Assembly (NCBI GenBank): GCA_963704905.1
Contig: CAVPHZ010000001.1
Coordinates: 131,438 to 195,437, forward strand
Source: Candidatus Chisholmbacteria bacterium
GTDB lineage: Bacteria; Patescibacteriota; Microgenomatia; UBA1400; Chisholmbacteraceae
Reading direction: 5' to 3'
DNA: 64,000 bases
The notes under the pieces are model-generated. The model made no database searches and was not told the DNA's origin. It saw only the letters and a list, made by a program, of their open reading frames with translations. Both the position numbers and the translations under genes were made by a program. Shown here one piece after another: positions 30,061 to 49,467 of this stretch (positions are counted from its first letter, which is position 1; each line of letters opens with the position of its first letter).

Positions 30061-30183
30061 AGTTTGATACATACTCTTTACTAGTAATGTTCAAAAATTA
30101 TTTTCCCCGTTGTATAATAATGAAGTTTTCATTTGTACTTAGTTCTGATAGGGTTCTTTTGCTTATGTAGTACAGTAAAAAGG

Positions 30184-31128: not shown

Positions 31129-31237
31129 ATATTGAGTAAGTACCATACATGCTTGCGAGCTCTACGATAGCAAATGTTTTTTTTGAAGAGCTCTACTTAT
31201 AGACGAGTAATCAAAACTTTGATATATAGAAGTACAG

Positions 31238-32164: not shown

Positions 32165-32186
32165 TTATTTTATTGAGGAGGAAACT

Positions 32187-33395: not shown

Positions 33396-33425
33396 TTGAC
33401 ATACCTCTCAGGTAGACCGTATGCT
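33396..33425 (+). promoter_or_regulatory. Putative sigma70 promoter (TTGACA, 18 nt spacer, TATGCT) with strong SD
   Basis: TTGACATACCTCTCAGGTAGACCGTATGCT followed by AAGGAGG and ATG at 33449. Confidence 0.5.
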
Positions 33426-33448
33426 ATAGACAAGGAGGTCTGCTGATA

Positions 33449-33640
33449 ATGAAAAAGAAACTGAGAATTAAAGAACTTGCTGAAAACCCAGTCATGCTTA
33501 TTATCTACGTCATCATCGCTTCGGTGATGGTCGCGAATATCTTTATCTCAGGATATCTATTTGGTCGCGCGCACCAAACAATTGAAAGCCTTCGCCCAGT
33601 GACGCCGCTTCATCCCCCACCAACACAGCCTCAGAAATGA
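33449..33640 (+). CDS. Small single-TM protein, Pro-rich C-terminus
   Basis: 63 aa, strong SD, stop overlaps the tag start (ATGA). Confidence 0.45.
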   Translation: MKKKLRIKELAENPVMLIIYVIIASVMVANIFISGYLFGRAHQTIESLRPVTPLHPPPTQPQK

Positions 33641-34203
33641 GAACCCGCTGCGGCTGGCTTAATGATGATCCTCTGATGATTTCCTATCATGATACTGAGT
33701 GGGGTGTTCCTCTTCATCAGGATCAAAAATTATTTGAGTATTTGGTTCTTGATGCATTTCAAGCAGGTCTAAGCTGGTCCATCATATTGAAAAAACGAGC
33801 TGGTTTTCGAAAAGCCTTTAACCGCTTTAATCCCAACAAAATCTCCAAGTACGCAAAACGGGATGTTTCGCGGCTCCTCAACGATGCTTCAATTATCCGT
33901 AATCGCTTGAAAATTGAATCGACTATTATCAATGCCCAGCAATTTCTTCAAGTTAAAAAAGAATTTGGACAATTTGATTCATACATATGGAAATTTGTCG
34001 GCGGAAAACCGATTGTGAACCGATATAAAAAACTCTCAGAACTTCCTGCAAAAAGCCACGAGGCTGAAGAAATGAGTAGAGATCTGAAAAACAAGGGTTT
34101 TACATTCGTAGGACCTACTATATGCTATGCTTTTATGCAAGCTTCTGGCATGGTAAATGATCATCTAGTAGGCTGTTTTCGCTACAAAGAAGTCTTGCAG
34201 TAA
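33637..34203 (+). CDS. tag: DNA-3-methyladenine glycosylase I
   Basis: YHDTEWGVP...LFEYLVLDAFQAGLSWSIILKKR Tag family signature. Four Cys/His zinc site residues present. Confidence 0.8.
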   Translation: MRTRCGWLNDDPLMISYHDTEWGVPLHQDQKLFEYLVLDAFQAGLSWSIILKKRAGFRKAFNRFNPNKISKYAKRDVSRLLNDASIIRNRLKIESTIINAQQFLQVKKEFGQFDSYIWKFVGGKPIVNRYKKLSELPAKSHEAEEMSRDLKNKGFTFVGPTICYAFMQASGMVNDHLVGCFRYKEVLQ

Positions 34204-34212
34204 TCAATTTTT

Positions 34213-35100
34213 TTGGGGCAGTTTTTTATGTCAACAGCAAGCTTGAACAATCAAGTCAAGTATCATCACGCCAATCTTCCGCTGACAAACCTTCACTATC
34301 TTACCTATGGTGAAGGACCGCCTCTTATCATTGTTCCAGCAACAATTTCAGATATTAATAATTGGTTAGACCTCATTTACTTCATGGGTCAGCGATTTAC
34401 GGTCTACTTTTTCGAACTTCCCGGACATGGTCAATCGACCCCTTTTCTGAAACTATACTCGAGTGACATGGTCGCTGAGTCGATTGAGCATTTTATTGAT
34501 GCTCAACAGATTGACCGGTTTTCACTTATGGGTTTTTCTTTTGGGGGCATTTTAACGCTTAAAACATTGCACCGGCTTGGAGATCGAATTGAACGGGTCA
34601 TTGTATTTGCTCCATGTGTAACTCATCGGGCGGTCCGCTATTCTCGGGCTCGATTAGCTGCCATGCGTCGCCTGACTTCGCTGATGAAATCACAACGAGC
34701 TCAGGGACAACTTCATCGATTTATTACTAACGGAGGTATGATTGAAGTGACACTGGCACTCATGCGACTGTTGGGAAGAGTGGAAACACTTGAAGGACTC
34801 GATAAAAGACTCCTTCACCTACCCTCGTCAACGCTTGATGTTCTGGTGTATCAAGCTAATGAGATTTTCAACTTTGAATTTGTCAGCGAGCATCTTCCGT
34901 TTTCTCAACCGTGTCACTTTGGCATGTCAGTCAAAGATCCACTGCTTGATTTTAAAGTAACACACGATTTCTTACGTCGTGCCTTTACAGATCTTCAGGT
35001 GATCAAGCTTGATTATCCATTTCATCAACCGCACCCACCATTCTCTTTGGAAAAACTTAATCAGGATTTTTCTCCGCTTCTCTATTCCATTGACCTCTAG
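34213..35100 (+). CDS. Alpha/beta-hydrolase fold protein
   Basis: GFSFGG nucleophile elbow, about 290 aa. Confidence 0.6.
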   Translation: MGQFFMSTASLNNQVKYHHANLPLTNLHYLTYGEGPPLIIVPATISDINNWLDLIYFMGQRFTVYFFELPGHGQSTPFLKLYSSDMVAESIEHFIDAQQIDRFSLMGFSFGGILTLKTLHRLGDRIERVIVFAPCVTHRAVRYSRARLAAMRRLTSLMKSQRAQGQLHRFITNGGMIEVTLALMRLLGRVETLEGLDKRLLHLPSSTLDVLVYQANEIFNFEFVSEHLPFSQPCHFGMSVKDPLLDFKVTHDFLRRAFTDLQVIKLDYPFHQPHPPFSLEKLNQDFSPLLYSIDL

Positions 35101-35103
35101 ACT

Positions 35104-35547
35104 TTATTGTTTCCGTCGGTCTTGCCAAAAGTCCTTGCTCTTTTGAGCATATTTGAGTATGGTCGCTTTCCTTTGCTGTATCACAGCATTAGTCTCATCG
35201 CTCTCAGGCTTGAGGACAATTACTTTTGAACCTCGGATATAGCACCCGGGTTCATTTCCTTGTCGGACCGGGATTTCCGGAAGAAGACAATATTTTTCTT
35301 TAATACCATCTACGTATGTACACAGCACTGCATAGTCAGTCGGATCAGTTATTTTTATTTGGGCAATTGCTTTTTTAATCGTTCGTCTGTTTCCTTTGGT
35401 GATATCTCTATCTATGGTGATAAAACAGACAGGAAAAAGATCAATATGCGATGTGAAAGAAGCATAGCCAACCAGCAGTGCGACAAGGACTAATACCAGT
35501 AGTATGTTTGGCAAATAATATCTGATTTTGGCAAGTATGTTTTTCAT
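35104..35547 (-). CDS. Small membrane-anchored protein, paralog of the 35549-35986 gene
   Basis: N-terminal TM. Shared KxAxxxLKxxxPxDYxxLC motif with the neighbouring gene. Confidence 0.45.
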   Translation of the reverse strand: MKNILAKIRYYLPNILLVLVLVALLVGYASFTSHIDLFPVCFITIDRDITKGNRRTIKKAIAQIKITDPTDYAVLCTYVDGIKEKYCLLPEIPVRQGNEPGCYIRGSKVIVLKPESDETNAVIQQRKATILKYAQKSKDFWQDRRKQ

Positions 35548-35548
35548 C

Positions 35549-35986
35549 TCAGTACTCTACAATACGTGAAAGCGCATCCGTCATCATTTCGTCGCACTCC
35601 TTTTCTCCCATCGGTCGGCCTTGTTTGTATTGAATCGCGTGACAGGTTTCGTGAACGATGATGGTTGAGGTCCAAGCTAAGCTTCTATTGGTCGTGCTGA
35701 TATCAATAGTCCTTGGTCTTTGCTTATAAAAACATCCTCCTTCGTGTCCTCCGCAGGAGATGTTTGGATTTATGGTTGAGACGTTGGCGCAAACCAGCTG
35801 ATAGTCTGAAGGAGAAGCAAATTTTAATACTTTGAGTGCTTCTTTGATGCTGAGATTGCTGAATTCGAGCAACGACGGGCGTACGGTGATGAAACAGTTT
35901 CCGCTGATATCCCAGTAGAAGAAGTAATTGAGTATAAATGAGATACATACTATACCTGCAATGATTTTTCCTACGTGCTTTTTCAT
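35549..35986 (-). CDS. Small membrane-anchored protein with HExxH motif (putative zinc-dependent peptidase-like)
   Basis: N-terminal TM. IVHETCHAIQY. Paralogous to the 35104-35547 gene. Confidence 0.45.
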   Translation of the reverse strand: MKKHVGKIIAGIVCISFILNYFFYWDISGNCFITVRPSLLEFSNLSIKEALKVLKFASPSDYQLVCANVSTINPNISCGGHEGGCFYKQRPRTIDISTTNRSLAWTSTIIVHETCHAIQYKQGRPMGEKECDEMMTDALSRIVEY

Positions 35987-35989
35987 CGT

Positions 35990-36502
35990 TTAATTTTCGT
36001 TGTTCTTTATATTTTTTCTGGTGAATTCGTACATTGAAATGCCTGCGGCAACCGACACATTTAGGCTTTCTTTTTTTCCGAATTGCGGAATCGTCAATAT
36101 CTGATCACAGACCTGTATCAGTTCTGGTGAAATGCCAGCTGTTTCATTGCCAAAAACGAGGCAGGTGTCTTGGGTGATTGTTACATCAAATAGTGATTTG
36201 GCGTTTTTGCCCGATTCCATAGCGATGAGTTCAATGTTTTTATTGTGTAGCTTTTGTGCAATGGTTAAAGCATCCTTATGATATTGCCAGTGAACTGAGC
36301 TTAGGCTACCGAGGGCGGTTTTATTGAGCTTTGGGTGCGGTGGATAAGCGGTATATCCGGTCAAATAGAGCGTGTCTATACCTGCTGCGTCGCAGGTTCT
36401 AAAGATGGAACCGACGTTGTAGGTTGAGCGGATGTTTTCTAACAGCACGTAGAGTTTAAAGGCCATATCTTCATTGTGTTTGAAGTACTCAGAGATTGTC
36501 AA
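35990..36502 (-). CDS. SpoU/TrmH-family RNA 2'-O-methyltransferase
   Basis: SPOUT motifs NVGSIFRTCDAAGI, LVFGNETAGIS, LNVSVAAGI. Confidence 0.7.
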   Translation of the reverse strand: MTISEYFKHNEDMAFKLYVLLENIRSTYNVGSIFRTCDAAGIDTLYLTGYTAYPPHPKLNKTALGSLSSVHWQYHKDALTIAQKLHNKNIELIAMESGKNAKSLFDVTITQDTCLVFGNETAGISPELIQVCDQILTIPQFGKKESLNVSVAAGISMYEFTRKNIKNNEN

Positions 36503-36763
36503 ATTCTTATCATATTCAGTGTCCGCCTCTCTGGTGGTATGCTATAGCTGTGACTTCTTCTAAAGAAACAGGTGAACAGCCAGATTTCCTTGAGGGAAGG
36601 GAAGGGATTGTATCCAGAATTATTTTATCGATGATGGAAGTGGTAAAGCTGGTGCGTTTTGGAGACCGGCCATCGGGAAAACGAATACGAGAGGTCCGGA
36701 CACTTCCAGATGATCAAGCGGAGGTTACCCTAGTGGACGATCATTCAGATCCTGGGGTCTAAA

Positions 36764-36982
36764 TTAACCCCTTTCCTTACCCGGTAGAACCTGAGTGATA
36801 CTTGCGCTGACACCTTCAAGGGTTCTTCTCATTTTCTGCTTCATGTGATTAGGATGTATGCTTCTGGGTAGTTCAGTTCTTCCAGTGTAGTCAGACTTTG
36901 CCATTTCTTGCGGAACTCTCCCTGCTCCACGAGCTTCAACGGCATCTAGTTCTAATTCAAGATATGCGGGATCCATTGGCAT
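36764..36982 (-). CDS. Hypothetical small protein (uncertain)
   Basis: 72-aa ORF upstream of the SpoU gene. No motif. Could be a spurious ORF in a GC-enriched non-coding stretch. Confidence 0.25.
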   Translation of the reverse strand: MPMDPAYLELELDAVEARGAGRVPQEMAKSDYTGRTELPRSIHPNHMKQKMRRTLEGVSASITQVLPGKERG

Positions 36983-37107
36983 AATTTCCTTGTGATTAGT
37001 TCGTATTTGGAGATTTTTCCAGATATGGGCAAATTGGACAGGAGACTATATATACTGATAGCAGTTGCGAGTGATTAGCTCACATACTAAGATGTTCTTG
37101 GAGAGGC

Positions 37108-37530
37108 ATGAAACTATTTGTCCTGCTGGTTGTTGCATTGGTAGCCTGGAATATCTACCGTTCCGTGGAGATATCTTCATTCGTTGATGTAAGTACAATC
37201 CTTGACTATGGTCAGCGAGCTGCTAAAGAAGACCTTTGCCCAGAAGGGCAAAAACCTAAATATGGCTATGGTGCACAGGGATGGGATGCAAAGGCATGTT
37301 ATACTCCAACTGAGGATGCCGGAAAGACGTGCCTTCAAGCTACTGACTGCCTCAGTCTTCAATGTTTGGTTATTGACGAAGATCAATTAAAGGACGCTTG
37401 TGAATTCAGGCTCGAATCCCAGTCATATCTTTGCAGTGAAATCATTGGAGAGTGCGGTGACGGAGGAACCCCGGAAGCAGCCCTGAGCATCACCAGCAAA
37501 AATCACGTCTACCGAAAGTCATACTATTAA
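37108..37530 (+). CDS. Secreted Cys-rich small protein
   Basis: N-terminal signal/TM helix. 10 Cys in 140 aa. Confidence 0.45.
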   Translation: MKLFVLLVVALVAWNIYRSVEISSFVDVSTILDYGQRAAKEDLCPEGQKPKYGYGAQGWDAKACYTPTEDAGKTCLQATDCLSLQCLVIDEDQLKDACEFRLESQSYLCSEIIGECGDGGTPEAALSITSKNHVYRKSYY

Positions 37531-38172
37531 CGCTCGTTGAAAATGTGCCACCTGCCTTCTGAAATGATGGTGTTCTGATTATTGTTAACCACGATAACTG
37601 TTTGATCATCGATCGCGTAGATGGTGTCTTTCGTTTCACTTGCAGATTTTTTAAGTATTTTATTTTTACCTTGGGAAAACTTGGAGAGTTAAGATGAAGC
37701 CGGGCCAGAAAACACGATATGTTTGTCTCGGGTAACGATGTAAAGGCACCGGATTGGGTAAAAAATACGTTGCTTAAACAATAGTTGGGATGGAAAATTA
37801 TTATCGATCTTGGAAATATTACAGGAGCTAGGGTAATGGAGATGTACTTACCAGTTGCGGCTTAGACTGTTTTCAACACTTTAGACTCTGCATTTTTATA
37901 TTTAAATATCAAAATAGCGTTACTTTTTAGCTGACTGAATTTATGGACTTCTCGTGTGGGGTTGAGTTATGTTTTCCTTTGCCGGATACTCTCGAATCAA
38001 CCTGCAGAGCGCTAATCCAGTGAGTGTCACAATTATGCCTTCTCCATATAAAGGAATGCTCATGAACAAAACGATGCTTCCCGACCGAACTCATTGAATC
38101 GGTACATACTTGACTCATGAGTGTGAAATATTTTGATCTGCTTCCTTCGTTTGGTATACTCTTTTTTCCTTT

Positions 38173-38556
38173 ATGAGTTTGCATGAACGCCAAAGATATA
38201 CACCAGCGGGATCGCTTGAGGAAATCGTCACCAGGGCAGGTTTTCCGAGCCTCGAGGTAGACTGGTTGGTATTCCAGCTCCGACGTGCGCTTGAAATCCC
38301 TCAAGACATTGATCGTAATCTCGACGTAGAAGTTTCGGCGTTTATCCGCATCGGATCTGAAGCACTCAGAGACCGATTAGCCTATGAGCGTTTTCAATCT
38401 TTCTTTCGGCAAGTGCTTGATGTTGAGCTAGGACCTCAAGACGAAGCGCTCAACGATCTACAACAGCGGTTTTCAATGGATAGGGATAAGCTATGTTCGC
38501 ATGTGGATTGGGAAATGGTAAACGTCTATCGTCTCAAGTCTGCTCTTTATCATTAA
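38173..38556 (+). CDS. Hypothetical protein (first gene of GC-rich island)
   Basis: 127-aa ORF with GC-rich codon usage. No motif. Confidence 0.35.
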   Translation: MSLHERQRYTPAGSLEEIVTRAGFPSLEVDWLVFQLRRALEIPQDIDRNLDVEVSAFIRIGSEALRDRLAYERFQSFFRQVLDVELGPQDEALNDLQQRFSMDRDKLCSHVDWEMVNVYRLKSALYH

Positions 38557-38923
38557 AGCGGGCAAATAGGCTAAGTGACTTTTCTCCGATCCTGCTTTAC
38601 TGTAAATAATATCTTGAGGTGTAGTATCTTCATTCTTCTGGCATGTTTCCTGTAGTTTTCAACCGATGTTCTCTGGCTTTTTCATGGCAGCCAAGAGACT
38701 GTGCTCGGGCTGAGTGCGTCCGACCGGAAACGTTCAAACACATTTTTGTGCTTTACCTATTGGGACCGATGACCACAATGCAGTAGGTCATTCCGCTGAT
38801 ATGCAAGCAAGACAAGGGTTTCTGAATGAACGTGAGCTCCAACACCGCTCTTCTTTATTTACCGAACATGAGCGTGTATTCTTCGATAATGCGGGCGATG
38901 GGAGCCCTCAGTCTAACCCGGGT

Positions 38924-39943
38924 TTACTTCAATTTATAATAGCTTGACTTGGTTGTCCCTTGCCGATCGATAAAGCCTTTGCTTACCAACGCGCTTAACA
39001 AATTGTGGGCCTGTTGGCGGGATACACCAAGCTTGCGGGCAAGATCGGTAGAGGTCAATTCCGGCTGTTCTTGCATGAGCTGCAATACCTGGTCTTCTTT
39101 CTTGGTCGGCCGGTCCTTGACTGAGAGCGTCTGAGCTGCATTTTTTACCCGCGCCAACGCACCAATCAACGAATGTTTTACTCCATCGGAAAAATATTCC
39201 AGCCACTGTGTCTTGTCCCCGCTGTCAGCCGTGTGAAGCTTGTCGGAGTAGAGAGTTTTGTCGATGTCATAGTAATCATCCAGAACGAAGTACTTGTTAA
39301 TTAAATAGTCCGCCTTGATGAACACCAACGCAGTGAGTATCCGGCAGACCCGTCCGTTGCCGTCTTCGAAGGGATGGATGTAAACAAATTCGTGATGAAA
39401 GATACCAGTTTTAATAATAATGGGCAGTTTCTCGGTGCTTTCGGTCCATTCAAACAATGGACGTAAGCCTGCTTCTATTTGCTTCCGCTGATGAAAGGGA
39501 GGATCGTGTTTCACTCTGAGAGTCGCTGTCTCCTTTTCTCCGATAAATTTTCCCACCACCACTTTTCTGTTGCGGATTTCTCCGGCAGTTTTATCAACAC
39601 CCTGCAAGATGAGCTTGTGAATTTCTTTGGTGAGGTCGACGCTGAGTTTTTTTTGTTTATATTCTGTAAGCGCAGACAGGATCTGAAAGTAGTTGACGAC
39701 TTCTTTTTCATCGCGGTTCGTCGGAACCCGGTCGTCCAGCAGCAGATTGGTTACTTCCGGGAGTGTCAGCGGGTTGCCTTCAATGGCGTTACTGGCATAG
39801 GAGGATTTGATGAGATTATCCCGGTTGAGGTTGAGCTCAAGTTTTTTAGGAATGCGAAATGATTCAATCTGGCCGTAGAGCCGTTCGATTTCGGTGATGT
39901 TATTAAGCAGTGTATTGGTGAGCGTGTATTTTGGCGCTAGCAT
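38924..39943 (-). CDS. Fic family protein (AMPylation domain) with C-terminal winged HTH
   Basis: Canonical Fic motif HPFEDGNGRVCR. C-terminal LTSTDLARKLGVSRQQAHNLLSALVSKGFI wHTH. Confidence 0.85.
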   Translation of the reverse strand: MLAPKYTLTNTLLNNITEIERLYGQIESFRIPKKLELNLNRDNLIKSSYASNAIEGNPLTLPEVTNLLLDDRVPTNRDEKEVVNYFQILSALTEYKQKKLSVDLTKEIHKLILQGVDKTAGEIRNRKVVVGKFIGEKETATLRVKHDPPFHQRKQIEAGLRPLFEWTESTEKLPIIIKTGIFHHEFVYIHPFEDGNGRVCRILTALVFIKADYLINKYFVLDDYYDIDKTLYSDKLHTADSGDKTQWLEYFSDGVKHSLIGALARVKNAAQTLSVKDRPTKKEDQVLQLMQEQPELTSTDLARKLGVSRQQAHNLLSALVSKGFIDRQGTTKSSYYKLK

Positions 39944-40049
39944 GTTATTATTGTCAATATATATGTAAAGATTATTGACAAGAATCTGGCTTATTAATTG
40001 TCAATGTTATTGTAAAGCTTTATGTCAAGTTTGTCAAGTGGTTCTTGAG

Positions 40050-40412
40050 TTATGCCTTTAACAGCGATTCAACTTGTTTTACATCGTTTTTGATCTGATC
40101 CGTGAGCTGCCTGGCTGAAGAAAACTGTTTTACCGGCCGAAGGTAGTGTTTCAGCTCAAAGGTAATTGAGCTAACCTGTTTAACTTCTTGAAAGTTGAGT
40201 ATAAATATTTCCAGTGAAACTTGCGGATCGGCATAGGTGGGAATGGGACCAAAGTGCAGCGCGCCTTTGTATCTTTTCCTTCCAATCCACACCCAGCAGG
40301 CATAGATGCCATGCTTGGTGTTCAGCGAGGTGGGAATTTGAAGATTAACGGTCGGGAAGCCGAGCTTTTTTCCTCTCCCCTTGCCTTTGATGAGCAGGGT
40401 ACGGTATTTCAT
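40050..40412 (-). CDS. Riboflavin kinase (monofunctional RibF C-domain-like)
   Basis: GRGKKLGFPTVNL, GIYACWVWI, HFGPIPTY motifs. 120 aa. Confidence 0.7.
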   Translation of the reverse strand: MKYRTLLIKGKGRGKKLGFPTVNLQIPTSLNTKHGIYACWVWIGRKRYKGALHFGPIPTYADPQVSLEIFILNFQEVKQVSSITFELKHYLRPVKQFSSARQLTDQIKNDVKQVESLLKA

Positions 40413-41314
40413 GCGTTTGGTTTATTGAGTTTGGACACCTGGTAGACCGCAAACAGCAGGACTCCTGCCGCCAGGTACTGCGACAGTTTGAGCAGATTGT
40501 GATAGTAAATCAGGTCAATGGCAACTGCGGTCAAAGGAAAGACGAGTTCAAGGAGTGTGGATATTTTCACTTGCGTCTGCTTTAATCCTCGATAATAGAT
40601 CCAGAGCGCGACCATTCCGGTTGATAGGGCGATAATCAGCAAACGGACGAGCTGGCCTCCGGTTACGATACTCAGCTGTTTGTAATTTCCCAGCAGGAAG
40701 ACGGCGGCAAAGGCTAGCGGAGTGGTAAGCAAAAAACGCAGGCCGGTCATAGTGGTATGGGAAAGTTTGCGCAAACCAAACCGGGAAAATGCCGTTGATG
40801 TGCCCCAGGCAAAGGCGGCGCCGACAGCCATCAGCGCGGCGGTGGCTGTTCCCGCACCGGCATCCAGCAGAACTTTTCCGTCGGGAAAGGTAACAAAATA
40901 AGCGGCGGCAAGCGCCAGCACTGCCCATTTTCCGTAGTTCTTTGATATGCTCTCCTTAAGGAGTATCCTGGCGGCAATGACCGCGAAGATGGGCTGGAGT
41001 TTTTGCAGCAAGAAAACAACGGAGAAGGAGATAAAATTGACTTTCACCAAGGCTGCGGTAAACAGCAGTGTACCGGCAACCCCGGAGAGCAGACTGATCC
41101 AAATCAGTGCTCCCCATTCTTTGCCTGAGATCTTTTCTTTGGATAGTTTCGGTAAGGCGAATGGAGCAATGAGCAGTGCTCCTATTGCGTGTTCATAAAA
41201 GACGATCACGGAGGGTGGCAAGGAAAACAAACTCCTGCGCAGGATGCCGTCTATCCCCCAAAGCACAGCAGCAATGATGATGAATGCCGGACCGATATTG
41301 TTGATTTTCCTCAT
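40409..41314 (-). CDS. EamA/DMT-family transporter
   Basis: 301 aa, 10 TM, two EamA-like halves. GC-rich. Confidence 0.55.
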   Translation of the reverse strand: MRKINNIGPAFIIIAAVLWGIDGILRRSLFSLPPSVIVFYEHAIGALLIAPFALPKLSKEKISGKEWGALIWISLLSGVAGTLLFTAALVKVNFISFSVVFLLQKLQPIFAVIAARILLKESISKNYGKWAVLALAAAYFVTFPDGKVLLDAGAGTATAALMAVGAAFAWGTSTAFSRFGLRKLSHTTMTGLRFLLTTPLAFAAVFLLGNYKQLSIVTGGQLVRLLIIALSTGMVALWIYYRGLKQTQVKISTLLELVFPLTAVAIDLIYYHNLLKLSQYLAAGVLLFAVYQVSKLNKPNA

Positions 41315-41450
41315 ATTGGCTAGCTATCACCATAGCATATTTTTGGAATTCTCCTCCCCACCTTGCACTGTAATTGTTTAAACATGGTCTGATTCTTTTT
41401 TTTGAATTCTACTCAACTTCTCCCTGTTTGTGTTATATACTTGATCTCTG

Positions 41451-42206
41451 ATGACACTTGAATTAGAACAAGGCTCTCAGCTTCTTTCCCGTATTCAAGG
41501 TATCTTCCGCAATAAAAAAACATGGTATTCCGACGCTCCAGAGGGCGGGTTTGATTGGAAGCAAAGCGTTCAGAAGGTTGCCACACAACTCCGAGGCGAA
41601 ATTGGCTGGGGAGATGCCTCTCAGGTTCCAACGGCAATTGAAAATGCATTTTCACCCGAAAGCCTGACGCGCGTGGAAGGAGAGCATCCTGAACCGCTGA
41701 TTGCCAGAGCACATGAACTCGTCAAACAGTACAACGGTGATCTCTATGTGTGGACGGTTGGCGACCCTGAATGGCAGCGAACCAAATTTCAGCGCTGCGG
41801 TATTGGTGAGTATGTTGATGAGGCTCATTATTTGCGCTCTTCCGCTGGGAAGGGAAATCGTCTGCGTGAGCTTCTGGCTGAACTCAGCCTGGCAACAGGC
41901 AATGACCGAACCACATTTGTGTATGTAGTCGATGATAAGCCGGAAAATTTAGCAGCGGTCATGCAGATGGCTGGTGAATTTAGGAACTCCGGAGTCCAGC
42001 TGGGTAACTATCACATGAAGCTTGATGACCCGCTCGCTGATGCGACTGCATGTTTTCAATATCTTGCAGAAAGAATGAAAACCCATGCCGAGGCGGGAGA
42101 GAAGCCCGTTCTAGTCTTTGATCAAGATGGTGTGCTCACGGACACAGACCGGACTCTATTTGAAGTGGCAAGCAGAAATATTCTTGAACTGGCAACCAGA
42201 AAATAA
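41451..42206 (+). CDS. Hypothetical protein (HAD-like DxDGVLTD motif at the C-terminus)
   Basis: 251 aa. C-terminal VLVFDQDGVLTDTD resembles HAD motif I but is at an atypical position. Confidence 0.35.
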   Translation: MTLELEQGSQLLSRIQGIFRNKKTWYSDAPEGGFDWKQSVQKVATQLRGEIGWGDASQVPTAIENAFSPESLTRVEGEHPEPLIARAHELVKQYNGDLYVWTVGDPEWQRTKFQRCGIGEYVDEAHYLRSSAGKGNRLRELLAELSLATGNDRTTFVYVVDDKPENLAAVMQMAGEFRNSGVQLGNYHMKLDDPLADATACFQYLAERMKTHAEAGEKPVLVFDQDGVLTDTDRTLFEVASRNILELATRK

Positions 42207-42267
42207 CGCTTCTCGTTATTGAAATTTATATACCAGTGCCGGTTTTTTTCCACCAGATGAGGGAACG

Positions 42268-42600
42268 TGGTAGAATGCGGCGCATGAGTGGAAATCCGGA
42301 ATGCGCTCTCTATCTCTCGGTCCGCAGGCAATCGGTACGGATGGTACCCGCATGTGAAATCCCGATGGTACAGTCTGGGAGTCAAACCTGTGATCATTTT
42401 TTCGGTACACCGCAGAACATCGTCAACGGTGCCAGAGATGTGACAAATTCCTGCCGGAGAGCTGTTGAGGCTCGATACGCTCCACCGATTGAAGCCACTT
42501 TTCCTGAATAACTTTTCCTTTGTTCTGGCATTCGTTTTCTTTTTTTATATCCGAAACCCGAGGTCGTATTATCTGTATCTTTAGTTATCCCTGGTAGTAT
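42268..42600 (+). ncRNA. Candidate structured leader RNA (FMN-riboswitch-like motifs), tentative
   Basis: Extended -10 TGGTAGAAT at 42270. A 330-nt GC-rich region open in all frames. Two GTGRAAATCCSGA elements and ACAGTCTGGGAG resemble the FMN-element half-sites. Confidence 0.25.
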
Positions 42601-42637
42601 TAAATAAATACCTGAGGTAACATGGTAGAATTTATTT

Positions 42638-43108
42638 ATGTTCGATAACAACCTTCTGCGAAAATTGAGAATTGGATTTCTGTTTTCAGGTGTTCTCGTT
42701 TCCTGGACCACTACCCTGGCTGCGTTTATGAACTTCTATCGCCTTGAGGGAACGCTGTTTAAAATCAAGGACTGTATCATCCCCAATCCGGTAACTACCC
42801 CGTGTTTCTGGGGAGCGTTGGCGTTTATGGGCGCCTTGATCTGGTCGCTGTATCTGTTGAAGAACAATAATGAAAAATCAGATCGGTATCTGTTTTATTT
42901 TCTCATCGGTTGTGTGATTTTTGCCTGGGGCAATTTTACGGTTGAGCTTATGGGAATAACTCCAAAACCAGGTGCATTGATCGCACCTTGTCCTGCAACC
43001 GGTACCAATCCGTTTCTTTCCGCCTGCTTCTTCGGTTCTGTTTTGTTTACTTTATCCTTGACAACGAATTTCTTTATACAAAGAAAGGGTTCGGGCAGTT
43101 CTGCTTAA
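42638..43108 (+). CDS. Small polytopic membrane protein (possible transporter component)
   Basis: 156 aa, 4 TM. Preceded by TGGTAGAAT 8 nt from the ATG (leaderless-type start). Confidence 0.45.
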   Translation: MFDNNLLRKLRIGFLFSGVLVSWTTTLAAFMNFYRLEGTLFKIKDCIIPNPVTTPCFWGALAFMGALIWSLYLLKNNNEKSDRYLFYFLIGCVIFAWGNFTVELMGITPKPGALIAPCPATGTNPFLSACFFGSVLFTLSLTTNFFIQRKGSGSSA

Positions 43109-43122
43109 CAGTTGGTAATTTT

Positions 43123-43920
43123 CTATAGTGCATCCAATCCAACCGCCTGTAAGTATGGCATCGGGTCTGCATACTCTCCTCGATTGCTGGGAGGTAGCAG
43201 ATCAGCCAGCGGCAGCATCATCAGATCCGCCAATTGTTGGGAATATATCTGCTGATCAGCGGAAAAAACAGCGTGCTGGGGGATTAACTCCGGAAGTCTA
43301 AATGGTTTTCCCACTTTTAATTCCGGATCGCCATATTCGGCATAGGTTATTCCCACCGGGAGATACGCTAGTCGGTGCTCGGGATCATAATCCGGAATAC
43401 GACCAAATCCCCGATTGGCCCGAAGTAAATTTTGCCCTTTACCCCTGGTTCCTTCGGGAGTGTATCCATACACTGAACCGGGACTAAGGAGATGCTCTCG
43501 TGAAGACTCTTTCAACTTGTCAAGCATTCTCAGTCTTTCTTCGTCTTGGTACACATCCTTTTCTCTATGCTGTACAACCGGTATCGGGTGGGCGTCTATT
43601 AAACGCAGAAGTCGAAATCCGGAAGCGGCTTTAAAATCTCTTCGAAAATCGTAATGTCTAATTCCAACCGGTGCGAGAAGCATGCGACTTTCTGGTAGAG
43701 ACGCTGCCACCAAACTGACCATCACCCATACATCTTTGTCGCTGGTGTGATTGAGGTAGATGACCAAACCGGACTGTTTGAGGTGCTCATTGGCTTGAGA
43801 TAGGTGATCATAACTCCGGGCAGTAACCTCCAGGTTATATTTTTTTTGGAAATACGGCCAAGTCCGGCTTCCGATTTCTTTGCGTATTCGATGTACCGGA
43901 CGCGGAGATCCCTCTTTCAT
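43123..43920 (-). CDS. Lysophospholipid acyltransferase (PlsC family)
   Basis: HX4D motif NHTSDKD and YTPEGTR motif III. Confidence 0.55.
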   Translation of the reverse strand: MKEGSPRPVHRIRKEIGSRTWPYFQKKYNLEVTARSYDHLSQANEHLKQSGLVIYLNHTSDKDVWVMVSLVAASLPESRMLLAPVGIRHYDFRRDFKAASGFRLLRLIDAHPIPVVQHREKDVYQDEERLRMLDKLKESSREHLLSPGSVYGYTPEGTRGKGQNLLRANRGFGRIPDYDPEHRLAYLPVGITYAEYGDPELKVGKPFRLPELIPQHAVFSADQQIYSQQLADLMMLPLADLLPPSNRGEYADPMPYLQAVGLDAL

Positions 43921-44130
43921 TTTTTTATATTAGCAGATAATTTACTCTTTTAACGTTGGGATATTTTCCTGGGATCCGATACGTTTTGGACTCTTTTTAT
44001 AAGCTTTATTTTCCCGATGTTCCTTTACAACCTCGTTTTTTGATAGTCATCCAGGATTTCAATATCTTTGGTATCTATTCGGTCTTTTCGCTTCTCCCAG
44101 GGGAAAGAAAGTGATAGAATTTTTTACACT

Positions 44131-44886
44131 ATGGCACAAGATTTTTACGATAAGGTTGCACAGAAGTTTGGCGGATATCATACCGATAGCCGGTATACCA
44201 CCATCTATCCCGGTGAACAGCCTGAAGAAGTCTTTAAACAAAAACTGCTAGAGCAAGCTGGAGCTGAAAAAAGTGTGCTCGATTTGGGTTGTGCTGATGG
44301 ACGATTTACCCTTTCACTTGCGCCAAACTTCAAGCAGGTCACAGCGATCGATATTTCTGAAGGGATGCTTCTCAGTGCCCGCAACTTGCAGGAAAACCAG
44401 CAGATAACCAATGTTGACTTTGTGAAGCAACATGCAGAAGCAACCACGTTTTCCGACGGACAATTTGATGTTGTCTACAGCCGGAGAGGTCCAACGCCTT
44501 ATGCTGAAGTATTTCGCATTTTAAAACCGGGTGGCAGTTTTATCATTATTGAAATCGGGGAAAAAGATTGCGTGGAAATTAAAAAGGTATTTGGGAGAGG
44601 ACAGAATTATGGAGGGTGGGATAAACCAAGATCTAAACGGGAAACAGATAAGGCAGAGGAGGTTGGCTTTGAAGTCGAGTTTATAGAAAATTATTACTAT
44701 AACGAATACTATAAAAGCTACAAAGACTTTGATCTGTTTTTGCAAGGAGTACCGATTTTTGAAGATTTTGATCCGGTTACGGATAAAGTACTTTTAGAAA
44801 CATACGTCCAAAAATTTGAAACCGAGCAAGGAATCCGACTTGAGCGCCATAGAGTTGTCTTCACACTTACTAAGCCACTTCTTTAG
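44131..44886 (+). CDS. Class I SAM-dependent methyltransferase
   Basis: VLDLGCADGRFT (motif I) and ILKPGG. Start placed at MAQDFYDKV, which follows a TGATAGAAT extended -10. Confidence 0.65.
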   Translation: MAQDFYDKVAQKFGGYHTDSRYTTIYPGEQPEEVFKQKLLEQAGAEKSVLDLGCADGRFTLSLAPNFKQVTAIDISEGMLLSARNLQENQQITNVDFVKQHAEATTFSDGQFDVVYSRRGPTPYAEVFRILKPGGSFIIIEIGEKDCVEIKKVFGRGQNYGGWDKPRSKRETDKAEEVGFEVEFIENYYYNEYYKSYKDFDLFLQGVPIFEDFDPVTDKVLLETYVQKFETEQGIRLERHRVVFTLTKPLL

Positions 44887-44991
44887 TGAGACTAATCTGG
44901 CATCTTCCATCTCAAACTCTTGTATACAACATTCTTGATACAAAATGCTGAATTAGTTGGGTGGTTCTGGTAAAATACGCGTAGAAAAATC

Positions 44992-45594
44992 ATGATCAGA
45001 CCAGAATTGATATCAGGGATTGAAGCGAAAGATTTAGGATTACCGATAGCTGAAATGCAGACGGCATTTCCGCTTGATGTTTATCCAGAGTTTGAGCTGA
45101 AAGGTTTCGCTGAAACGGGCCATCATCATTTTCCCAGCGTGCTCTTTGGAATTCGTCGAGGAAACGAGATAAGGCGCTATCCCCGACCTGAGATATCCAT
45201 CGGTTACGAAATTCTACCGAAATCGGCACAATTAAATTTGGAGATTTATTTTGATAATTTTGGAAACCCGATCGCCGCACCTCGGGCTTTTACGCTTATT
45301 ATTGAAAACTCGAGAAGGCGTATCCTTCACAAACTTCGAAACGCCCCAAAAGGCACGAGAATGGGATATCATAGTCCTGAAATTTCTGCTCTTTCGATTG
45401 CATTACCTGATACGAGATATACATTTGAACCTCGACCAGAAGAACCCGGACTACAAACATTTGCCTTAACTAGAGCAACTCTAGATAGTCCACCACAGTC
45501 TAATCTCTTACTTACTTTTAAAGAAGTTGATAGCGATGGTTTTGAACTGCTTCCGAATTCTTGGACAGTCTTGGAAGACAATTTATTTACTTAA
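44992..45594 (+). CDS. Hypothetical protein (last gene of GC-rich island)
   Basis: 200-aa ORF, GC-rich, no motif. Confidence 0.35.
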   Translation: MIRPELISGIEAKDLGLPIAEMQTAFPLDVYPEFELKGFAETGHHHFPSVLFGIRRGNEIRRYPRPEISIGYEILPKSAQLNLEIYFDNFGNPIAAPRAFTLIIENSRRRILHKLRNAPKGTRMGYHSPEISALSIALPDTRYTFEPRPEEPGLQTFALTRATLDSPPQSNLLLTFKEVDSDGFELLPNSWTVLEDNLFT

Positions 45595-45802
45595 TAAACT
45601 GAATAAGTCGTCTATCTAAGATCTGTCATCTATAATCTGTGATCTGATTTTTCCTACTTACTGAATTCGTATATTATTAGGGTATTTCGCTTTTCCCACC
45701 TGCCCGCCGGAGTTTCCGGCTGCGAAAACGGCTAGATCGCAGTCTTGAGTAAGCAGCGAAACGCATGGCGAGGGGCCAGAAAGAAAGTGGTAGAATTTTG
45801 TT

Positions 45803-46321
45803 ATGAAGAAAAAGTCTCGCAAGAGGAAAGCAATCTATGCCTTCATCGATAGTCAAAACCTCAGCCTAGGAGTGAAAAGCCTTGGGTGGAATCTCGATTT
45901 TGCAAAATTCAGAGTGTATCTCCGCGATAAATACAAGGTTGAGAAAGCGTACTTGTTTATCGGTCATGTTCCTGGAAATGAAAAACTTTATACCCACTTA
46001 CAAGAATCCGGGTATGTGGTTGTGTTTAAACCAACGCTTGAATATCGAAAAGGGAAGAAGGTTTTTACCAAGGGCAACGTGGATGCCGAATTGGTTCTCC
46101 ATACGATGATCAACCTCAAAACATTCCATAAAGCCATCATTGTCTCGGGGGATGGAGACTTCCATTGCCTTGTCGAGTATCTTCACAGCCAGAAGAAATT
46201 GGAAAAAATTATCGTGCCGAACAGCAAGTATTCTTCGCTGCTTCGAAAATTTGCTCAATATATCGTGCCGGTGGAGCTGTTTAAAAGCAAAGTAAAAGAA
46301 ACGAGAACATCCAGACAATAA
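45803..46321 (+). CDS. NYN-domain (LabA-like) protein
   Basis: AFIDSQNL...GNVDAELV...SGDGDF acidic residues in NYN nuclease spacing. Confidence 0.6.
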   Translation: MKKKSRKRKAIYAFIDSQNLSLGVKSLGWNLDFAKFRVYLRDKYKVEKAYLFIGHVPGNEKLYTHLQESGYVVVFKPTLEYRKGKKVFTKGNVDAELVLHTMINLKTFHKAIIVSGDGDFHCLVEYLHSQKKLEKIIVPNSKYSSLLRKFAQYIVPVELFKSKVKETRTSRQ

Positions 46322-46549
46322 AAAGAGAGGCATTCCCTCGGGACGGAACCCTTTGGTAGTCCTCTCATCGTGATGTCATTATTATAGCAGGTTGCAACAA
46401 CTTTTTCTTCTATGTTCAGTATTCTTTATTCAATATTCTATTAATCCTCTGTTGCCTGTCATACACCAGAAAACGAATACATTAATCACCTTTGGGATAC
46501 TTACCTGACATTAGACACTCTTGGGGATGCTGGCAGAGGTTTTTCGATA

Positions 46550-47059
46550 ATGCCATTTCATATTTTGTTCATGCTCGCATTGCAGTATAAAGTCTTAAGA
46601 ATAAACAAAATTTACGGAAAAGAATGTAAACTAATATTTTGTACTTCTGGATCGAGATACAAAAAAGAACTATTAAATCCAGCTCTATCCGTTTTTGACC
46701 TTGCGTTACTTAGCGAAAAGCATCTTCCAGAGTTTTTTCAGCTGATTGGTTTAGATGAAGACACAATAAGAACTATTAAGAAATTCATCAACTATCGAAA
46801 TGACAATCTCGCACATCCAAAGGGCGGAATTGAACAAAATCCTGAAGCAAGGATCACATCCTACATCGAAGTTCTTAAAAATATTCAGATCTTTATGCTT
46901 AGTCTAAACAACAAGGTTGCTAAAAAATGGATTGGTGAGATGGATCCTGGAGAAGCGGGAGTTGAATATATCGATCTGCATTTGGCAGAGGAATTTCTTT
47001 GTCCAGCTGACATGCAACAGGGTGAATTAGCGGAATTAGATAATAGATTAAACCACTAA
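46550..47059 (+). CDS. Hypothetical protein
   Basis: 169-aa ORF in AT-rich accessory island. No motif recognised. Confidence 0.35.
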   Translation: MPFHILFMLALQYKVLRINKIYGKECKLIFCTSGSRYKKELLNPALSVFDLALLSEKHLPEFFQLIGLDEDTIRTIKKFINYRNDNLAHPKGGIEQNPEARITSYIEVLKNIQIFMLSLNNKVAKKWIGEMDPGEAGVEYIDLHLAEEFLCPADMQQGELAELDNRLNH

Positions 47060-47180
47060 ACTTAATAATCAGATTATTTAACGACATTTACAAAACGAGG
47101 AGTCCTCCTCATCAATGTTGATAATCTCTCGAGAACGTAAAAACGTCCCAGGTACCCTGGGACTAAATTTTCCAGATCTC

Positions 47181-47200
47181 GTTTTTTCTGAAATTTCTCC
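47181..47200 (+). repeat. Island motif copy 1 (GTTTTTTCTGAAATTTCTCC)
   Basis: Core TTCTGAAAWTTCT, 25 nt upstream of TGCTATAAT and 66 nt upstream of the ATG at 47266. Confidence 0.7.
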
Positions 47201-47265
47201 CGTTTCCCCAAGTTTTGCTATAATACCCGAACTATATACGAATATTAATCGGTTCAGCCGTATTT

Positions 47266-47874
47266 ATGAAAATAAAAGGTTACTATCCGGACAAATTTTC
47301 CGAACATTTCTCTGTATTCGTGAGAAATGCTGAAAAAATTTCAGGTGCAATTTGGAAATCAGAAGAGATAAATGGTTCAAAAAAGAAAGTGGTCTCTTTT
47401 ACAGGACATCTTTCAGAGGAGGCTTTAAAAAATATTCCAGAAGATATCCGGTCTATTTTTTTAATATTTGTTTCTTTTGAAGTAATGTTTGACGAGGTAG
47501 CATATACTTACTTCCCGCTTGATTATCAATACTTTCAATCATTGACGTTGTTTCCTAAGTACTACTTTTGTGGACATGGACCTGTGGGCGAAGGAAGTCC
47601 TTTTGGTATTTACTTCTTGTTACCCAAACAATTCAGAATATTTTCTAAAAGAAGAACTTATCTAAAACAAGGACCACCGCAAGTTCAGAAAGCATACAAG
47701 ACTTATAAAGAATGTAGCAGAGAGTTTATCACATACATGAATGATTTCCTCAGCAAGCATACATTTACTGAAATGACCATGAGAAGAGTTAAAACAGTTA
47801 TTTTAAATGACAAAGATATATATAGAAATGTCTATGGAAGAGTCTTTCAATCAATTTTAAAGAATACGTTTTGA
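47266..47874 (+). CDS. Hypothetical protein
   Basis: 202-aa ORF preceded by repeat motif copy 1 and TGCTATAAT. Confidence 0.4.
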   Translation: MKIKGYYPDKFSEHFSVFVRNAEKISGAIWKSEEINGSKKKVVSFTGHLSEEALKNIPEDIRSIFLIFVSFEVMFDEVAYTYFPLDYQYFQSLTLFPKYYFCGHGPVGEGSPFGIYFLLPKQFRIFSKRRTYLKQGPPQVQKAYKTYKECSREFITYMNDFLSKHTFTEMTMRRVKTVILNDKDIYRNVYGRVFQSILKNTF

Positions 47875-47931
47875 TCAGGATCTCACAAGTTTGGAAGTTA
47901 ATACTTATTTACAACACTACCTTCCAAAAAT

Positions 47932-48615
47932 ATGCAAGAATATCCAATTGAAGTCATCGATAATCACATAACAATAAATATTAACGATAAAAAAGTGCTG
48001 CTTGATACAGGCTCTCCAAATAGCATCGGTAAATTTCAAAATATAAAACTTTTAGGCAAAGAATATACACTTTCAGATAATTTCATGGGAATCGATATTT
48101 TTCAGATATCAAATTTTATAGACAGAGATATTGATGCAATGTTGGGTGGGGATATTCTAAGAGAGTACTATTTTGTGATTGACTGGCAAAAACGGTTATT
48201 CAAGCTTTCCACGGAACAAATTTCTTTTGAAGGAATAGAAGTTCTGATTAAAGTAGCAATGAACATTCCGGTTGTAAATATCAAGATTAATAAAAAGTCT
48301 GTTAAAACATTTTTAGACACAGGTGCAAAAATATCCTACGTGGACCCATCAATTACTAATAAATATGATTCTATTGGAGAAGTTACTGATTATTATCCAG
48401 CCTTTGGCCAGTTCGAAACATCTATTTTTAAAATTCCCGTTTTTTTAGCAGAAAAAAATATTGATTTGGTATTTGGAACACTCCCTGATTCACTACAAAA
48501 TTCATTAATGATGGCAGGAACCCAAGGAATATTAGGAAATGATGTTTTTAACTATTTCAGTATATATTTTGAATTGTCGAGGGAACGTATATTTATGAAG
48601 GAAGTAGTTGATTAA
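47932..48615 (+). CDS. Two-lobed aspartyl protease-like protein (two DTG motifs)
   Basis: LLDTGSPNSIG and FLDTGAKISYV about 110 aa apart, like a pepsin/retropepsin fold. Confidence 0.45.
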   Translation: MQEYPIEVIDNHITININDKKVLLDTGSPNSIGKFQNIKLLGKEYTLSDNFMGIDIFQISNFIDRDIDAMLGGDILREYYFVIDWQKRLFKLSTEQISFEGIEVLIKVAMNIPVVNIKINKKSVKTFLDTGAKISYVDPSITNKYDSIGEVTDYYPAFGQFETSIFKIPVFLAEKNIDLVFGTLPDSLQNSLMMAGTQGILGNDVFNYFSIYFELSRERIFMKEVVD

Positions 48616-48660
48616 TTTAACCAGTTAGGCTTTTTAAATGCTGATTTTTATCTACATCTC

Positions 48661-48682
48661 GTTTTTTTCTGAAATTTCTCGG
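48661..48682 (+). repeat. Island motif copy 2 (GTTTTTTTCTGAAATTTCTCGG)
   Basis: Shares the extended ATCTCGTTTTTTCTGAAATTTCTC with copy 1. Upstream of the NERD gene. Confidence 0.7.
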
Positions 48683-48738
48683 ATGTCCTTCTTTTCTTTG
48701 TAATTACGTTCTTTCTTAATACCGTCTATGATATTAGT

Positions 48739-49467
48739 ATGAGCCGGTTTTTTGGAGGGGATAGTCAGTACTTAGTTCGGCAAAAGCAAAGACACAAACG
48801 AATATTGCTTCTTATCTTGATTGTTTCTCTTGCTATTTCAATTGCTATACCAATATTAAGTTTTCGTTATCGAAAGTTGCAGTATTTAAGTTATCCTCTT
48901 GCTGCATTTTCATTTGTTGGTTATCTTTGGATGAAAAAGACCGGCGACAAAAAGCTTCATTCAGCGCGCAGTTATGCAAAAGGAGCAAAAGGGGAAAAGA
49001 ACATTGGTTTGCTTTTACGCCGTTTGCCTGATGATTACCTTGTATTTCAAGATATCAAGCTTGAAAAAGATTCGGGAAATATCGATTTTGTAGTGGTCGG
49101 ACGCAAAGGCGTTTATGCAATAGAGGTCAAAAGCCATGCAGGAAATATCACGTATGAGAATGGACAGCTACTGCGGAATGGAAAATCATTGGAAACAGAT
49201 TTTCTCAAACAGACGATGAGTGAAGCCATGAATCTTCATGGTTTCTTATTAACAAAGTTGGGTAAAGACCTCTTTGTTTATCCAGTTCTTGTCTTCTCGC
49301 ATTGGAAAGCGCAAGTAAGATTTGGCGAAAAACCAATTGAGAAGGTTTACATTGTTCAATACCGCTGGCTGATAAATTTGATCACTGATCTAGAATCACA
49401 ATCTCACCACGCTCTTAATCAAGATGAGCTCAGCCAGATGCTAGAACCTCACCTCCATGAAGCTTGA
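48739..49467 (+). CDS. NERD-domain nuclease-related protein with N-terminal TM
   Basis: KGAKGEKNIGLLLRRLPDDYLVFQDIKLEKDSGNIDFVVVGRKGVYAIEVKSHAG matches the NERD core. Confidence 0.6.
   Translation: MSRFFGGDSQYLVRQKQRHKRILLLILIVSLAISIAIPILSFRYRKLQYLSYPLAAFSFVGYLWMKKTGDKKLHSARSYAKGAKGEKNIGLLLRRLPDDYLVFQDIKLEKDSGNIDFVVVGRKGVYAIEVKSHAGNITYENGQLLRNGKSLETDFLKQTMSEAMNLHGFLLTKLGKDLFVYPVLVFSHWKAQVRFGEKPIEKVYIVQYRWLINLITDLESQSHHALNQDELSQMLEPHLHEA

Follow-up and report, generated by a model that had tools for sequence, protein, structure and literature searches.

The DNA analysed here (the window) is a 64-kb section of a 772,908-bp contig from Candidatus Chisholmbacteria bacterium; the products of its genes include RecA, RecX and RNase Y as well as proteins of a type IV pilus. 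It contains a contiguous block of raised GC content that is real but modest, about +7 GC points above its surroundings. The compositional signal of this block comes mainly from a 2.4-kb co-directional cluster (38924-41314) of the genes for an EamA transporter, a riboflavin kinase (RibK) and a Fic protein with a winged helix-turn-helix (wHTH) domain. We regard it as reasonably probable that the block belongs to a mosaic variable region, in which the signal derives from an EamA-RibK tract, possibly including Fic, that was imported from a GC-richer relative within the Patescibacteria. The features that carry this argument are the following.

38201-43900, no strand: GC-raised block, 46.9% GC
40409-41314, minus strand: EamA/DMT transporter, 301 aa (Pfam EamA, 3.8e-31)
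40050-40412, minus strand: monofunctional RibK, 120 aa (Pfam Flavokinase PF01687, 8.1e-29)
40009-40037, minus strand: putative sigma-70-type promoter lying between RibK and Fic, near-consensus (TTGACA-17-TACAAT, 11 of 12 consensus matches)
38924-39943, minus strand: Fic protein with C-terminal wHTH, 339 aa, SoFic-like (Pfam Fic, 9.4e-18, plus HTH)

An earlier note on this DNA had described a sharp island at 38100-45620, with 50-58% GC in a background of 35-40%. A raised block is present, but its amplitude is smaller: this interval has 45.3% GC, compared with 39.9% in the left 38 kb, 40.8% in the right 18 kb and 40.8% in the whole window. The claimed contrast is thus overstated roughly two- to three-fold. 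The top 500-bp window, at 40501, reaches 53.2% GC, and a comparable peak of 53.0% at 53501 lies outside the flagged interval. The statement that 40780-40900 exceeds 60% agrees with the measured 60.3%. A maximum-likelihood segmentation seeking the single most deviant segment returned 38201-43900 with a log-likelihood ratio (LLR) of 48.2, against 23.1 +/- 4.8 (maximum 38.0) for a null of 100 shuffles of 1-kb blocks. The left border near 38.1 kb is therefore retained, while the right border moves from 45.6 to 43.9 kb. Since the segment ends there and both genes have background composition, the methyltransferase and 200-aa genes assigned to the island lie outside the real block. Later segments from the same procedure were an AT-rich one at 46401-48900 (33.1% GC) and a GC-rich one at 52901-54200 (49.7%).

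Genes outside the flagged island, which served as the baseline, have a mean GC content at third codon positions (GC3) of 0.368 +/- 0.069. EamA, whose overall GC of 0.511 is the highest among the genes of the block, reaches a GC3 of 0.586, followed by Fic (0.559) and RibK (0.529). The values for the 156-aa (0.48), 251-aa (0.44), PlsC-like (0.44) and 127-aa (0.43) genes are lower, and the methyltransferase (0.377) and the 200-aa gene (0.308) are at background. In a length-corrected codon-bias test with the non-island genes of the window as reference, z was 7.6 for both Fic and EamA, 2.8 for RibK and 3.2 for the PlsC-like gene, and below 2 for the remaining five of the nine genes. The sharply different codon usage attributed to the island is thus confined to Fic, EamA, RibK and, mildly, the PlsC-like gene, and does not extend to the other five.

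At fourfold-degenerate sites, the Fic, RibK and EamA genes carry C at 0.36-0.39 and G at 0.25-0.30, compared with 0.14-0.19 and 0.10-0.17 in the genes for RecA, RNase Y, PilB and SpeE-M28. This pattern is a general GC shift, a mutational-type signature. Translational selection was ruled out as the cause of the high GC3, because G and C both rise and the third positions of the RecA and RNase Y genes are AT-rich. An amino-acid bias of membrane proteins was likewise ruled out, since GC3 gives the strongest signal and the orthologs track their own backgrounds. The most codon-atypical gene of the window lies outside the island: a CDF (cation-efflux) transporter gene at 53317-54258 on the minus strand (GC3 0.627, z 9.1), which sits in the second, separate GC-rich patch at 52901-54200 and is similar in kind to the EamA cluster.

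Comparison with relatives places the EamA-RibK pair at its ancestral position. A related contig, L085 (37.8% GC), encodes RecA (82% identical to that of the window), RNase Y (72%), the OTCase-like protein (72%), Tag (68%), SpeE-M28 (56%) and RecX (56%). Its EamA (73%) and RibK (51%) fall within the range of flank-gene identities, which reaches down to 58% and 45% for two lineage-specific hypothetical proteins. The gene order in L085 is EamA-RibK-(117 aa, RRM)-145 aa-147 aa-OTCase-like-SpeE/M28-RecA-RecX-RNase Y. In reverse reading, the order in the window is EamA-RibK-(Fic, 127, 140, 70, SpoU)-145-147-(hydrolase, Tag)-OTCase-like, followed by (OTCase, carbamate kinase)-SpeE/M28-(tRNA-Pro ...)-RecA-RecX-RNase Y. 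This match of gene order identifies the genes on either side of the claimed left border as ancestral neighbours. Two features are of particular use here.

35104-35986, minus strand: two lineage-specific hypothetical genes, 147 and 145 aa, which anchor the EamA-RibK synteny with L085
37531-38172, no strand: intergenic gap at the left border, 642 bp, 38.8% GC

The L085 counterparts of the 147-aa and 145-aa genes are 45% and 58% identical, respectively, with order and orientation kept. The gap at 37531-38172 contains no repeat, tRNA or RNA family. The genes for Fic, the 127-aa, 251-aa and 156-aa proteins and the PlsC-like protein have no counterpart in the 20 kb available from L085, a single close relative. 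Judged from these gene orders, the stretch upstream of RecA is a zone of gene-content turnover. The more distant L087 (45% GC, RecA 70%) shares a RecA-RecX-RNase Y-HU-ABC2 block, and there SpoU adjoins RecA.

The donor signal given by the EamA homologs is the Patescibacteria, which is the phylum of the host itself. SpoU from the left flank has best matches of at most 64% identity; the taxon-named ones at 46% or above are Patescibacteria, and Ignavibacteria names appear only lower. Tag was tried as a further host marker and set aside as too promiscuous, since the scan gave 80 loci from many phyla, at 66% identity or less and lacking synteny.

Although its position is ancestral, the EamA allele of the window has an unusual composition. 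In the orthologs, GC3 of EamA is 0.36 in L085 (38% GC) and 0.32 in L146 (39% GC), and that of RibK is 0.29 and 0.26, respectively, all at their own backgrounds. Across 29 orthologous loci, all of them with flanks of 4 kb or more, the GC content of EamA follows background GC with r = 0.96. The window EamA, with a GC of 0.511 where 0.41-0.42 is predicted, deviates by +3.9 to +4.4 standard deviations (SD), and its GC3 by +3.8 to +4.2 SD. In this regression both measures fit a background of 49% GC. A second regression with 26 loci gave +3.6 SD for GC3, +2.3 for GC at first positions (GC1) and +2.4 for the content of glycine, alanine, arginine and proline (GARP), and a weaker +1.5 for GC at second positions (GC2). 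All five composition measures of EamA imply a home background of 45-50% GC, and GC-richer relatives such as L087 do exist. In a neighbour-joining tree, the window EamA clusters with those of L085, P0008 and P0010.

EamA and RibK constitute a two-gene module that is conserved throughout the Patescibacteria phylum and is often fused. EamA has more than 1700 strong homologs. Among the 120 listed, identity ranges from 59 to 74%, every taxon-named match belongs to the Patescibacteria (Chisholmbacteria, Komeilibacteria, 'Patescibacteria group') and 32 are single-chain fusions of EamA and flavokinase. In 32 of 59 loci, RibK comes directly after EamA. A 4-nt overlap joins the RibK start to the EamA stop in the window, and the same overlap occurs in L085 and L146. 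The RibK match to PF01687 spans 11-123 of 124 profile positions; RibK is called monofunctional because it aligns solely to the C-terminal kinase portion of RibF models. Given this linkage, EamA and RibK most likely import riboflavin and then trap it as flavin mononucleotide (FMN). The module occupies 40050-41314 (minus strand) in the window, 10001-11271 in L085 and 482-1746 in L146, with 57 further loci (L089-L145); in L086 a CTP_transf_like gene (9285-9764), possibly encoding an FMN adenylyltransferase, lies just upstream of the module. No description of an EamA-flavokinase module in Patescibacteria was found in the open literature searched.

These observations could be connected as follows. 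A stretch of variable gene content lies beside the conserved RecA-RecX-RNase Y block of a small Patescibacteria-type genome, and the EamA-RibK module keeps its ancestral place in the chromosome. In nucleotide and amino-acid composition, however, the copy fits a genome with about 49% GC. It therefore most likely came in through recombination with a member of the phylum that is richer in GC, which replaced the resident EamA-RibK allele or restored the module at the same variable site. The SoFic-like Fic gene, with its own putative promoter, may have been co-transferred or separately inserted alongside. The genes for the 127-aa, 251-aa, 156-aa and PlsC-like proteins are accessory genes with only mildly raised GC, and the methyltransferase and 200-aa genes are ordinary genes of host composition. 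The recent horizontal acquisition suggested earlier thus survives in part, in a narrower form, as import of the EamA-RibK allele and the adjacent Fic gene; the EamA-RibK pair itself is ancestral at this site and so is not new cargo.

Several points weigh against an imported allele. RibK, which is shorter, shows a clear shift only at GC3, and its amino-acid composition is not clearly shifted. No donor with EamA-RibK-Fic was found, the closest EamA homologs are in AT-rich genomes, and the EamA tree is poorly resolved at 70-74% identity. The GC-normalised tetranucleotide signature of the block correlates with the rest of the window at r = 0.80-0.85, within the window's own distribution of 0.826 +/- 0.035, and is thus host-like; the least host-like stretch by this measure is 42-48 kb. 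GC3 also varies elsewhere, mostly within 0.31-0.47 over 50-62 kb and up to 0.63 at the CDF gene. In addition, Rfam showed no FMN riboswitch, either at the gathering score across the window or at E <= 1 within 36.4-46 kb, and the import function proposed for the module is drawn from gene linkage.

Most of these points bear on a serious rival, native heterogeneity, in which the cluster was inherited vertically and its composition arose through a local process (e.g., GC-biased repair or recombination) or through normal gene-to-gene scatter. The window covers 64 kb of 773 kb, and such intrinsic variation may be wider in the genome as a whole. This rival agrees with EamA-RibK at the ancestral position, grouping with the copies of relatives, and also with the host-like tetranucleotide signature, the host-like codon usage in five of the nine genes, the other GC-rich gene in the window (53317-54258) and the host-type leaderless promoters inside the block. 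It is harder to reconcile with the orthologs in the two closest genomes, which remain at background GC3, and with the window EamA as an outlier of about 4 SD from a regression with r = 0.96, shifted in amino-acid composition as well. To our knowledge, no local process gives a GC3 of 0.59 where genes average 0.37. We therefore consider native heterogeneity rather unlikely, and prefer import of the EamA-RibK allele.

It is less probable still that the whole of 38.2-43.9 kb is one acquired cassette, a genomic islet in a plasticity zone with Fic as selfish cargo. The block is one contiguous and significant GC segment, its accessory genes (Fic, 127-aa, 251-aa, 156-aa and PlsC-like) lack counterparts in the 20 kb of L085, a gene of the SoFic-like kind is one often expected in defence loci or mobile DNA, and the intergenic stretches 38557-38923 and 42207-42637 are GC-rich too. 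Codon usage nevertheless differs from gene to gene inside the block (z from 0.9 to 7.6), EamA and RibK at its core are ancestral to the site, and homologs of the 251-aa gene lie in unrelated gene contexts. As the earlier note had said, the borders carry no integrase, tRNA or direct repeats: genes from 35 to 49.5 kb gave no Pfam, NCBIfam or PADLOC match to an integrase, recombinase or transposase; the sole tRNA in the window is tRNA-Pro at 27505; and no border-flanking repeats were found, the longest two-copy families being of 14-24 nt and at chance level. Plasmid, phage and viral-contig similarity searches of the block were all negative. The block is thus not a classical or discrete mobile island.

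An assembly chimera, in which DNA from another organism or from a related strain was joined into the contig, is very improbable; so far as the sequence by itself can tell, the suggested join is in effect refuted. In its favour, the contig may come from a metagenome assembly, and breaks at 37651/37710 and 43095 in the Logan assembly of ERR12037370 lie near the block borders. However, that assembly is fragmentary, with contigs of 1.6-9.8 kb, and every break lies inside an intergenic region or a few bases from one; these breaks were therefore dismissed as island borders. A 5,386-bp Logan contig corresponds to window 37710-43095 with identical proteins, and it spans both junctions between atypical and host-like genes: the atypical genes at 38.9-41.3 kb are flanked in it by the 127-aa gene on one side and the 251-aa and 156-aa genes on the other. 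It extends past the 38.2-kb point by about 490 bp, and the 43.9-kb point falls in a gap between contigs (43095-44040); other Logan contigs correspond to window 27891-37651 and 44040-45657. Furthermore, the synteny with L085 crosses the left border with orthologs from both sides, EamA (inside) and SpoU (outside) both have Patescibacteria as best matches, no repeat able to seed a misjoin was found, and the tetranucleotide signature is host-like.

The Fic gene is a candidate toxin or abortive-infection gene, and its sequence points to a distant relative of SoFic only. The catalytic motif HxFx[D/E]GN[G/K]RxxR is present as HPFEDGNGRVCR at residues 190-201, and the inhibitory motif [S/T]xxxE[G/N] occurs N-terminal of the Fic core as SNAIEG at residues 51-56. 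HTH_IclR/MarR matches lie at residues 285-328. The PADLOC SoFic model matches residues 9-336 with E 7.6e-55 (profile positions 22-349 of 361), while the NCBIfam SoFic equivalog gives 59.4 bits, far below its cutoff of 550. In the PDB, 4RGL is the best relative (3.3e-25), and the SoFic entries align with the C-terminal half only (residues 167-327). The promoter at 40037-40009 remains putative, being recognised by its consensus match. Downstream of Fic, the only candidate for an AS1-like partner was a 37-codon minus-strand open reading frame (ORF) without support. Fic is missing downstream of RibK at the orthologous site in L085 and L146. Its proposed role as mobile cargo is plausible in view of this absence and its SoFic-like nature, but finds no backing in a mobility gene or a plasmid, phage or viral match.

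The remaining features of the flagged interval are listed below.

38173-38556, plus strand: 127-aa hypothetical, convergent with Fic, z 1.3, gene also called in the Logan assembly
41451-42206, plus strand: 251-aa protein of a rare family, divergent from EamA, host-like codon usage (z 0.9)
42207-42637, plus strand: intergenic region claimed as a structured leader, 431 bp, 45% GC
42638-43108, plus strand: 156-aa membrane protein with a leaderless-type promoter
43123-43920, minus strand: PlsC-like acyltransferase, 265 aa, weak match, last gene of the block
44131-44886, plus strand: S-adenosylmethionine (SAM) methyltransferase, 251 aa (Pfam Methyltransf_25, 1.3e-18), z 0.2
44992-45594, plus strand: 200-aa hypothetical, GC3 0.308, z -1.2, outside the real block

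Among the assignments made by eye, Pfam bears out Fic with wHTH, flavokinase, EamA and the SAM methyltransferase, and leaves the acyltransferase borderline (Pfam Acyltransferase 8.5e-05, 22.8 bits, marginally below the 23-bit cutoff). No family match was found in Pfam, NCBIfam or PADLOC for the 127-aa protein, nor was there a family match for the 156-aa membrane protein. An exact-protein look-up of the PlsC-like protein and of the SpoU ORF with a TTG start returned no record, probably owing to differing gene calls. For the methyltransferase, the likeliest start codon is the ATG at 44131, in agreement with the gene call on the Logan contig.

The 251-aa protein is probably a HAD-like hydrolase in circularly permuted form, a hypothesis that is well supported but falls short of proof. 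A genome-collection scan gave no matches to it; a word-indexed search found 5 homologs, and an exhaustive profile search of 1.84 billion found 69 cluster representatives at E <= 1e-10. In an alignment of 33 members, K134, D161-D162-K163 and the C-terminal D224-x-D226 are invariant, and G227 and V228 nearly so. The four HAD catalytic motifs (DxDGV with D224/D226, WTVGD, K134 and D161-D162) are thus invariant or nearly so, in permuted order, with motif I at the C-terminus after motifs II-IV. Canonical HAD proteins align to the middle region only, and Pfam detects a weak HAD signal. When the C-terminal segment was moved in silico to the N-terminus, the Pfam HAD score rose from 18.3 to 23.9 bits and the alignment extended over the full profile; a 40%-identical homolog permuted likewise rose from 16.0 to 20.2 bits with the same extension. 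The protein does not reach the gathering cutoff of 26.4 bits in either its native or its permuted form. A confident AlphaFold model (AF2; pLDDT 89.6, pTM 0.87) has an alpha/beta Rossmann-like fold. Foldseek of this model against PDB gave nothing below E = 0.02, which is in line with a permuted topology. The literature searched contained no account of a permuted HAD family.

The intergenic region at 42207-42637 had been read as a long structured leader. This is not supported, since its folding is at the level of shuffled sequences (z +0.65) and it has no Rfam match at E <= 1; cobalamin- or FMN-riboswitch-like motifs picked by eye in this region found no support either. Nor is 45690-45777, taken for a hairpin-containing right border, significantly folded (z +1.0). 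The intergenic region at 42207-42637 does contain TGGTAGAAT boxes, at 42268-42276 and 42623-42631. In the window, a TANAAT box, often extended to TGGTAGAAT, lies 4-14 nt before the start codon of 9 of 72 genes, against about 1 by chance; examples are 42623-42631, 44112-44120, 45788-45796 and the boxes of the 12044-13210 and 13265 starts. Such spacing points to many transcripts that have no leader or a very short one, inside the block as well as in the flanks. Intergenic GC inside the block is 46.9% at 38557-38923 and 45.0% at 42207-42637, with an intergenic mean of 37.6 +/- 5.8%; these GC-rich spacers may be gene remnants or unannotated small genes.

Further observations concern the flanks. 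The AT-rich segment at 46401-48900 (LLR 32.6), immediately to the right of the flagged interval and the least host-like in tetranucleotide terms, overlaps genes at 45803-49467 that encode NYN-domain, unknown, aspartyl-protease-like and NERD-domain proteins, and it may be foreign or defence-related DNA. On the left, a 794-aa fusion of SpeE (spermidine synthase) and M28 peptidase stands beside an atypical 402-aa OTCase-like gene both in the window (27676-33395) and in L085 (13631-17270); the canonical OTCase and carbamate kinase genes are extra in the window relative to the L085 pairing. Gene orientation changes from minus to plus at 27.2-27.7 kb, beside tRNA-Pro, and cumulative GC skew has its minimum at about 28-30 kb. 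The switch at about 27200-29500 could be replication-origin-like; no dnaA was seen in the window.

Taken as a whole, the flagged region represents routine mosaic composition in a small symbiont-type genome, and the contig is not mis-assembled here. Judged by eye, the amplitude of a GC shift can be overestimated two- to three-fold. Of more use than the island are three by-products: the phylum-wide linkage or fusion of EamA with riboflavin kinase, which yields a prediction, open to experiment, of the route by which these auxotrophic bacteria obtain flavins; a SoFic-like gene in a Patescibacteria genome; and a small protein family that resembles a circularly permuted HAD hydrolase. A bolder synthesis, which we put forward tentatively and hold to be doubtful, would be homeologous recombination between Patescibacteria lineages of differing GC, by which a foreign allele took the place of the resident copy of an essential and apparently undescribed vitamin-salvage module, a toxin gene of SoFic type hitch-hiking beside it and a divergent neighbour founding a permuted HAD phosphatase family.

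In comparison with known systems, the RibN and ImpX families are of DMT/EamA type. As in those families, a multi-pass membrane permease is genetically tied to flavin metabolism. The tie of RibN and ImpX is an FMN riboswitch or clustering with riboflavin biosynthesis, whereas here it is tight linkage or fusion to a riboflavin kinase; the module has no FMN riboswitch of the kind that controls RibN, ImpX and RibU, its partner is a kinase instead of biosynthesis genes, and its importer role is predicted. RibN and ImpX are single-component bacterial riboflavin importers (PMC4418817).

SoFic, of the Shewanella oneidensis SO_4266 type, is reported to be a toxic AMPylase that acts as a single-gene anti-phage abortive-infection system and has a small downstream antitoxin, AS1 (PMC12249575). 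The Fic protein of the window differs in its distant sequence relationship and in that no AS1-like small downstream gene was identified, and its defence activity is putative. It shares with SoFic the HPFx[D/E]GNGRxxR core motif, the N-terminal inhibitory motif, the C-terminal wHTH and the full-length match to the PADLOC model. The 251-aa protein departs from HAD phosphatases in its C-terminal motif I, its sub-cutoff Pfam score and the lack of a significant PDB match in Foldseek, and resembles them in its DxDGV, Thr/Ser-containing WTVGD, Lys and VVDDK motifs and its Rossmann-like model.

At the level of the block, the likeness to a classical genomic island lies in a contiguous atypical segment with accessory genes, including one of toxin/defence type, and in gene content that varies between relatives. 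Unlike such islands, it has no integrase, border tRNA or flanking repeats, rises by only about 7 GC points, is heterogeneous inside and includes the ancestral EamA-RibK pair. Xenologous allele replacement, by homologous recombination between related lineages, is a parallel to the proposed import of EamA-RibK. The present case differs in that no donor was identified and that the atypical tract also includes the accessory Fic gene. The likeness consists of a conserved syntenic position, a phylogenetic placement within the clade of the host and the composition of another genome.

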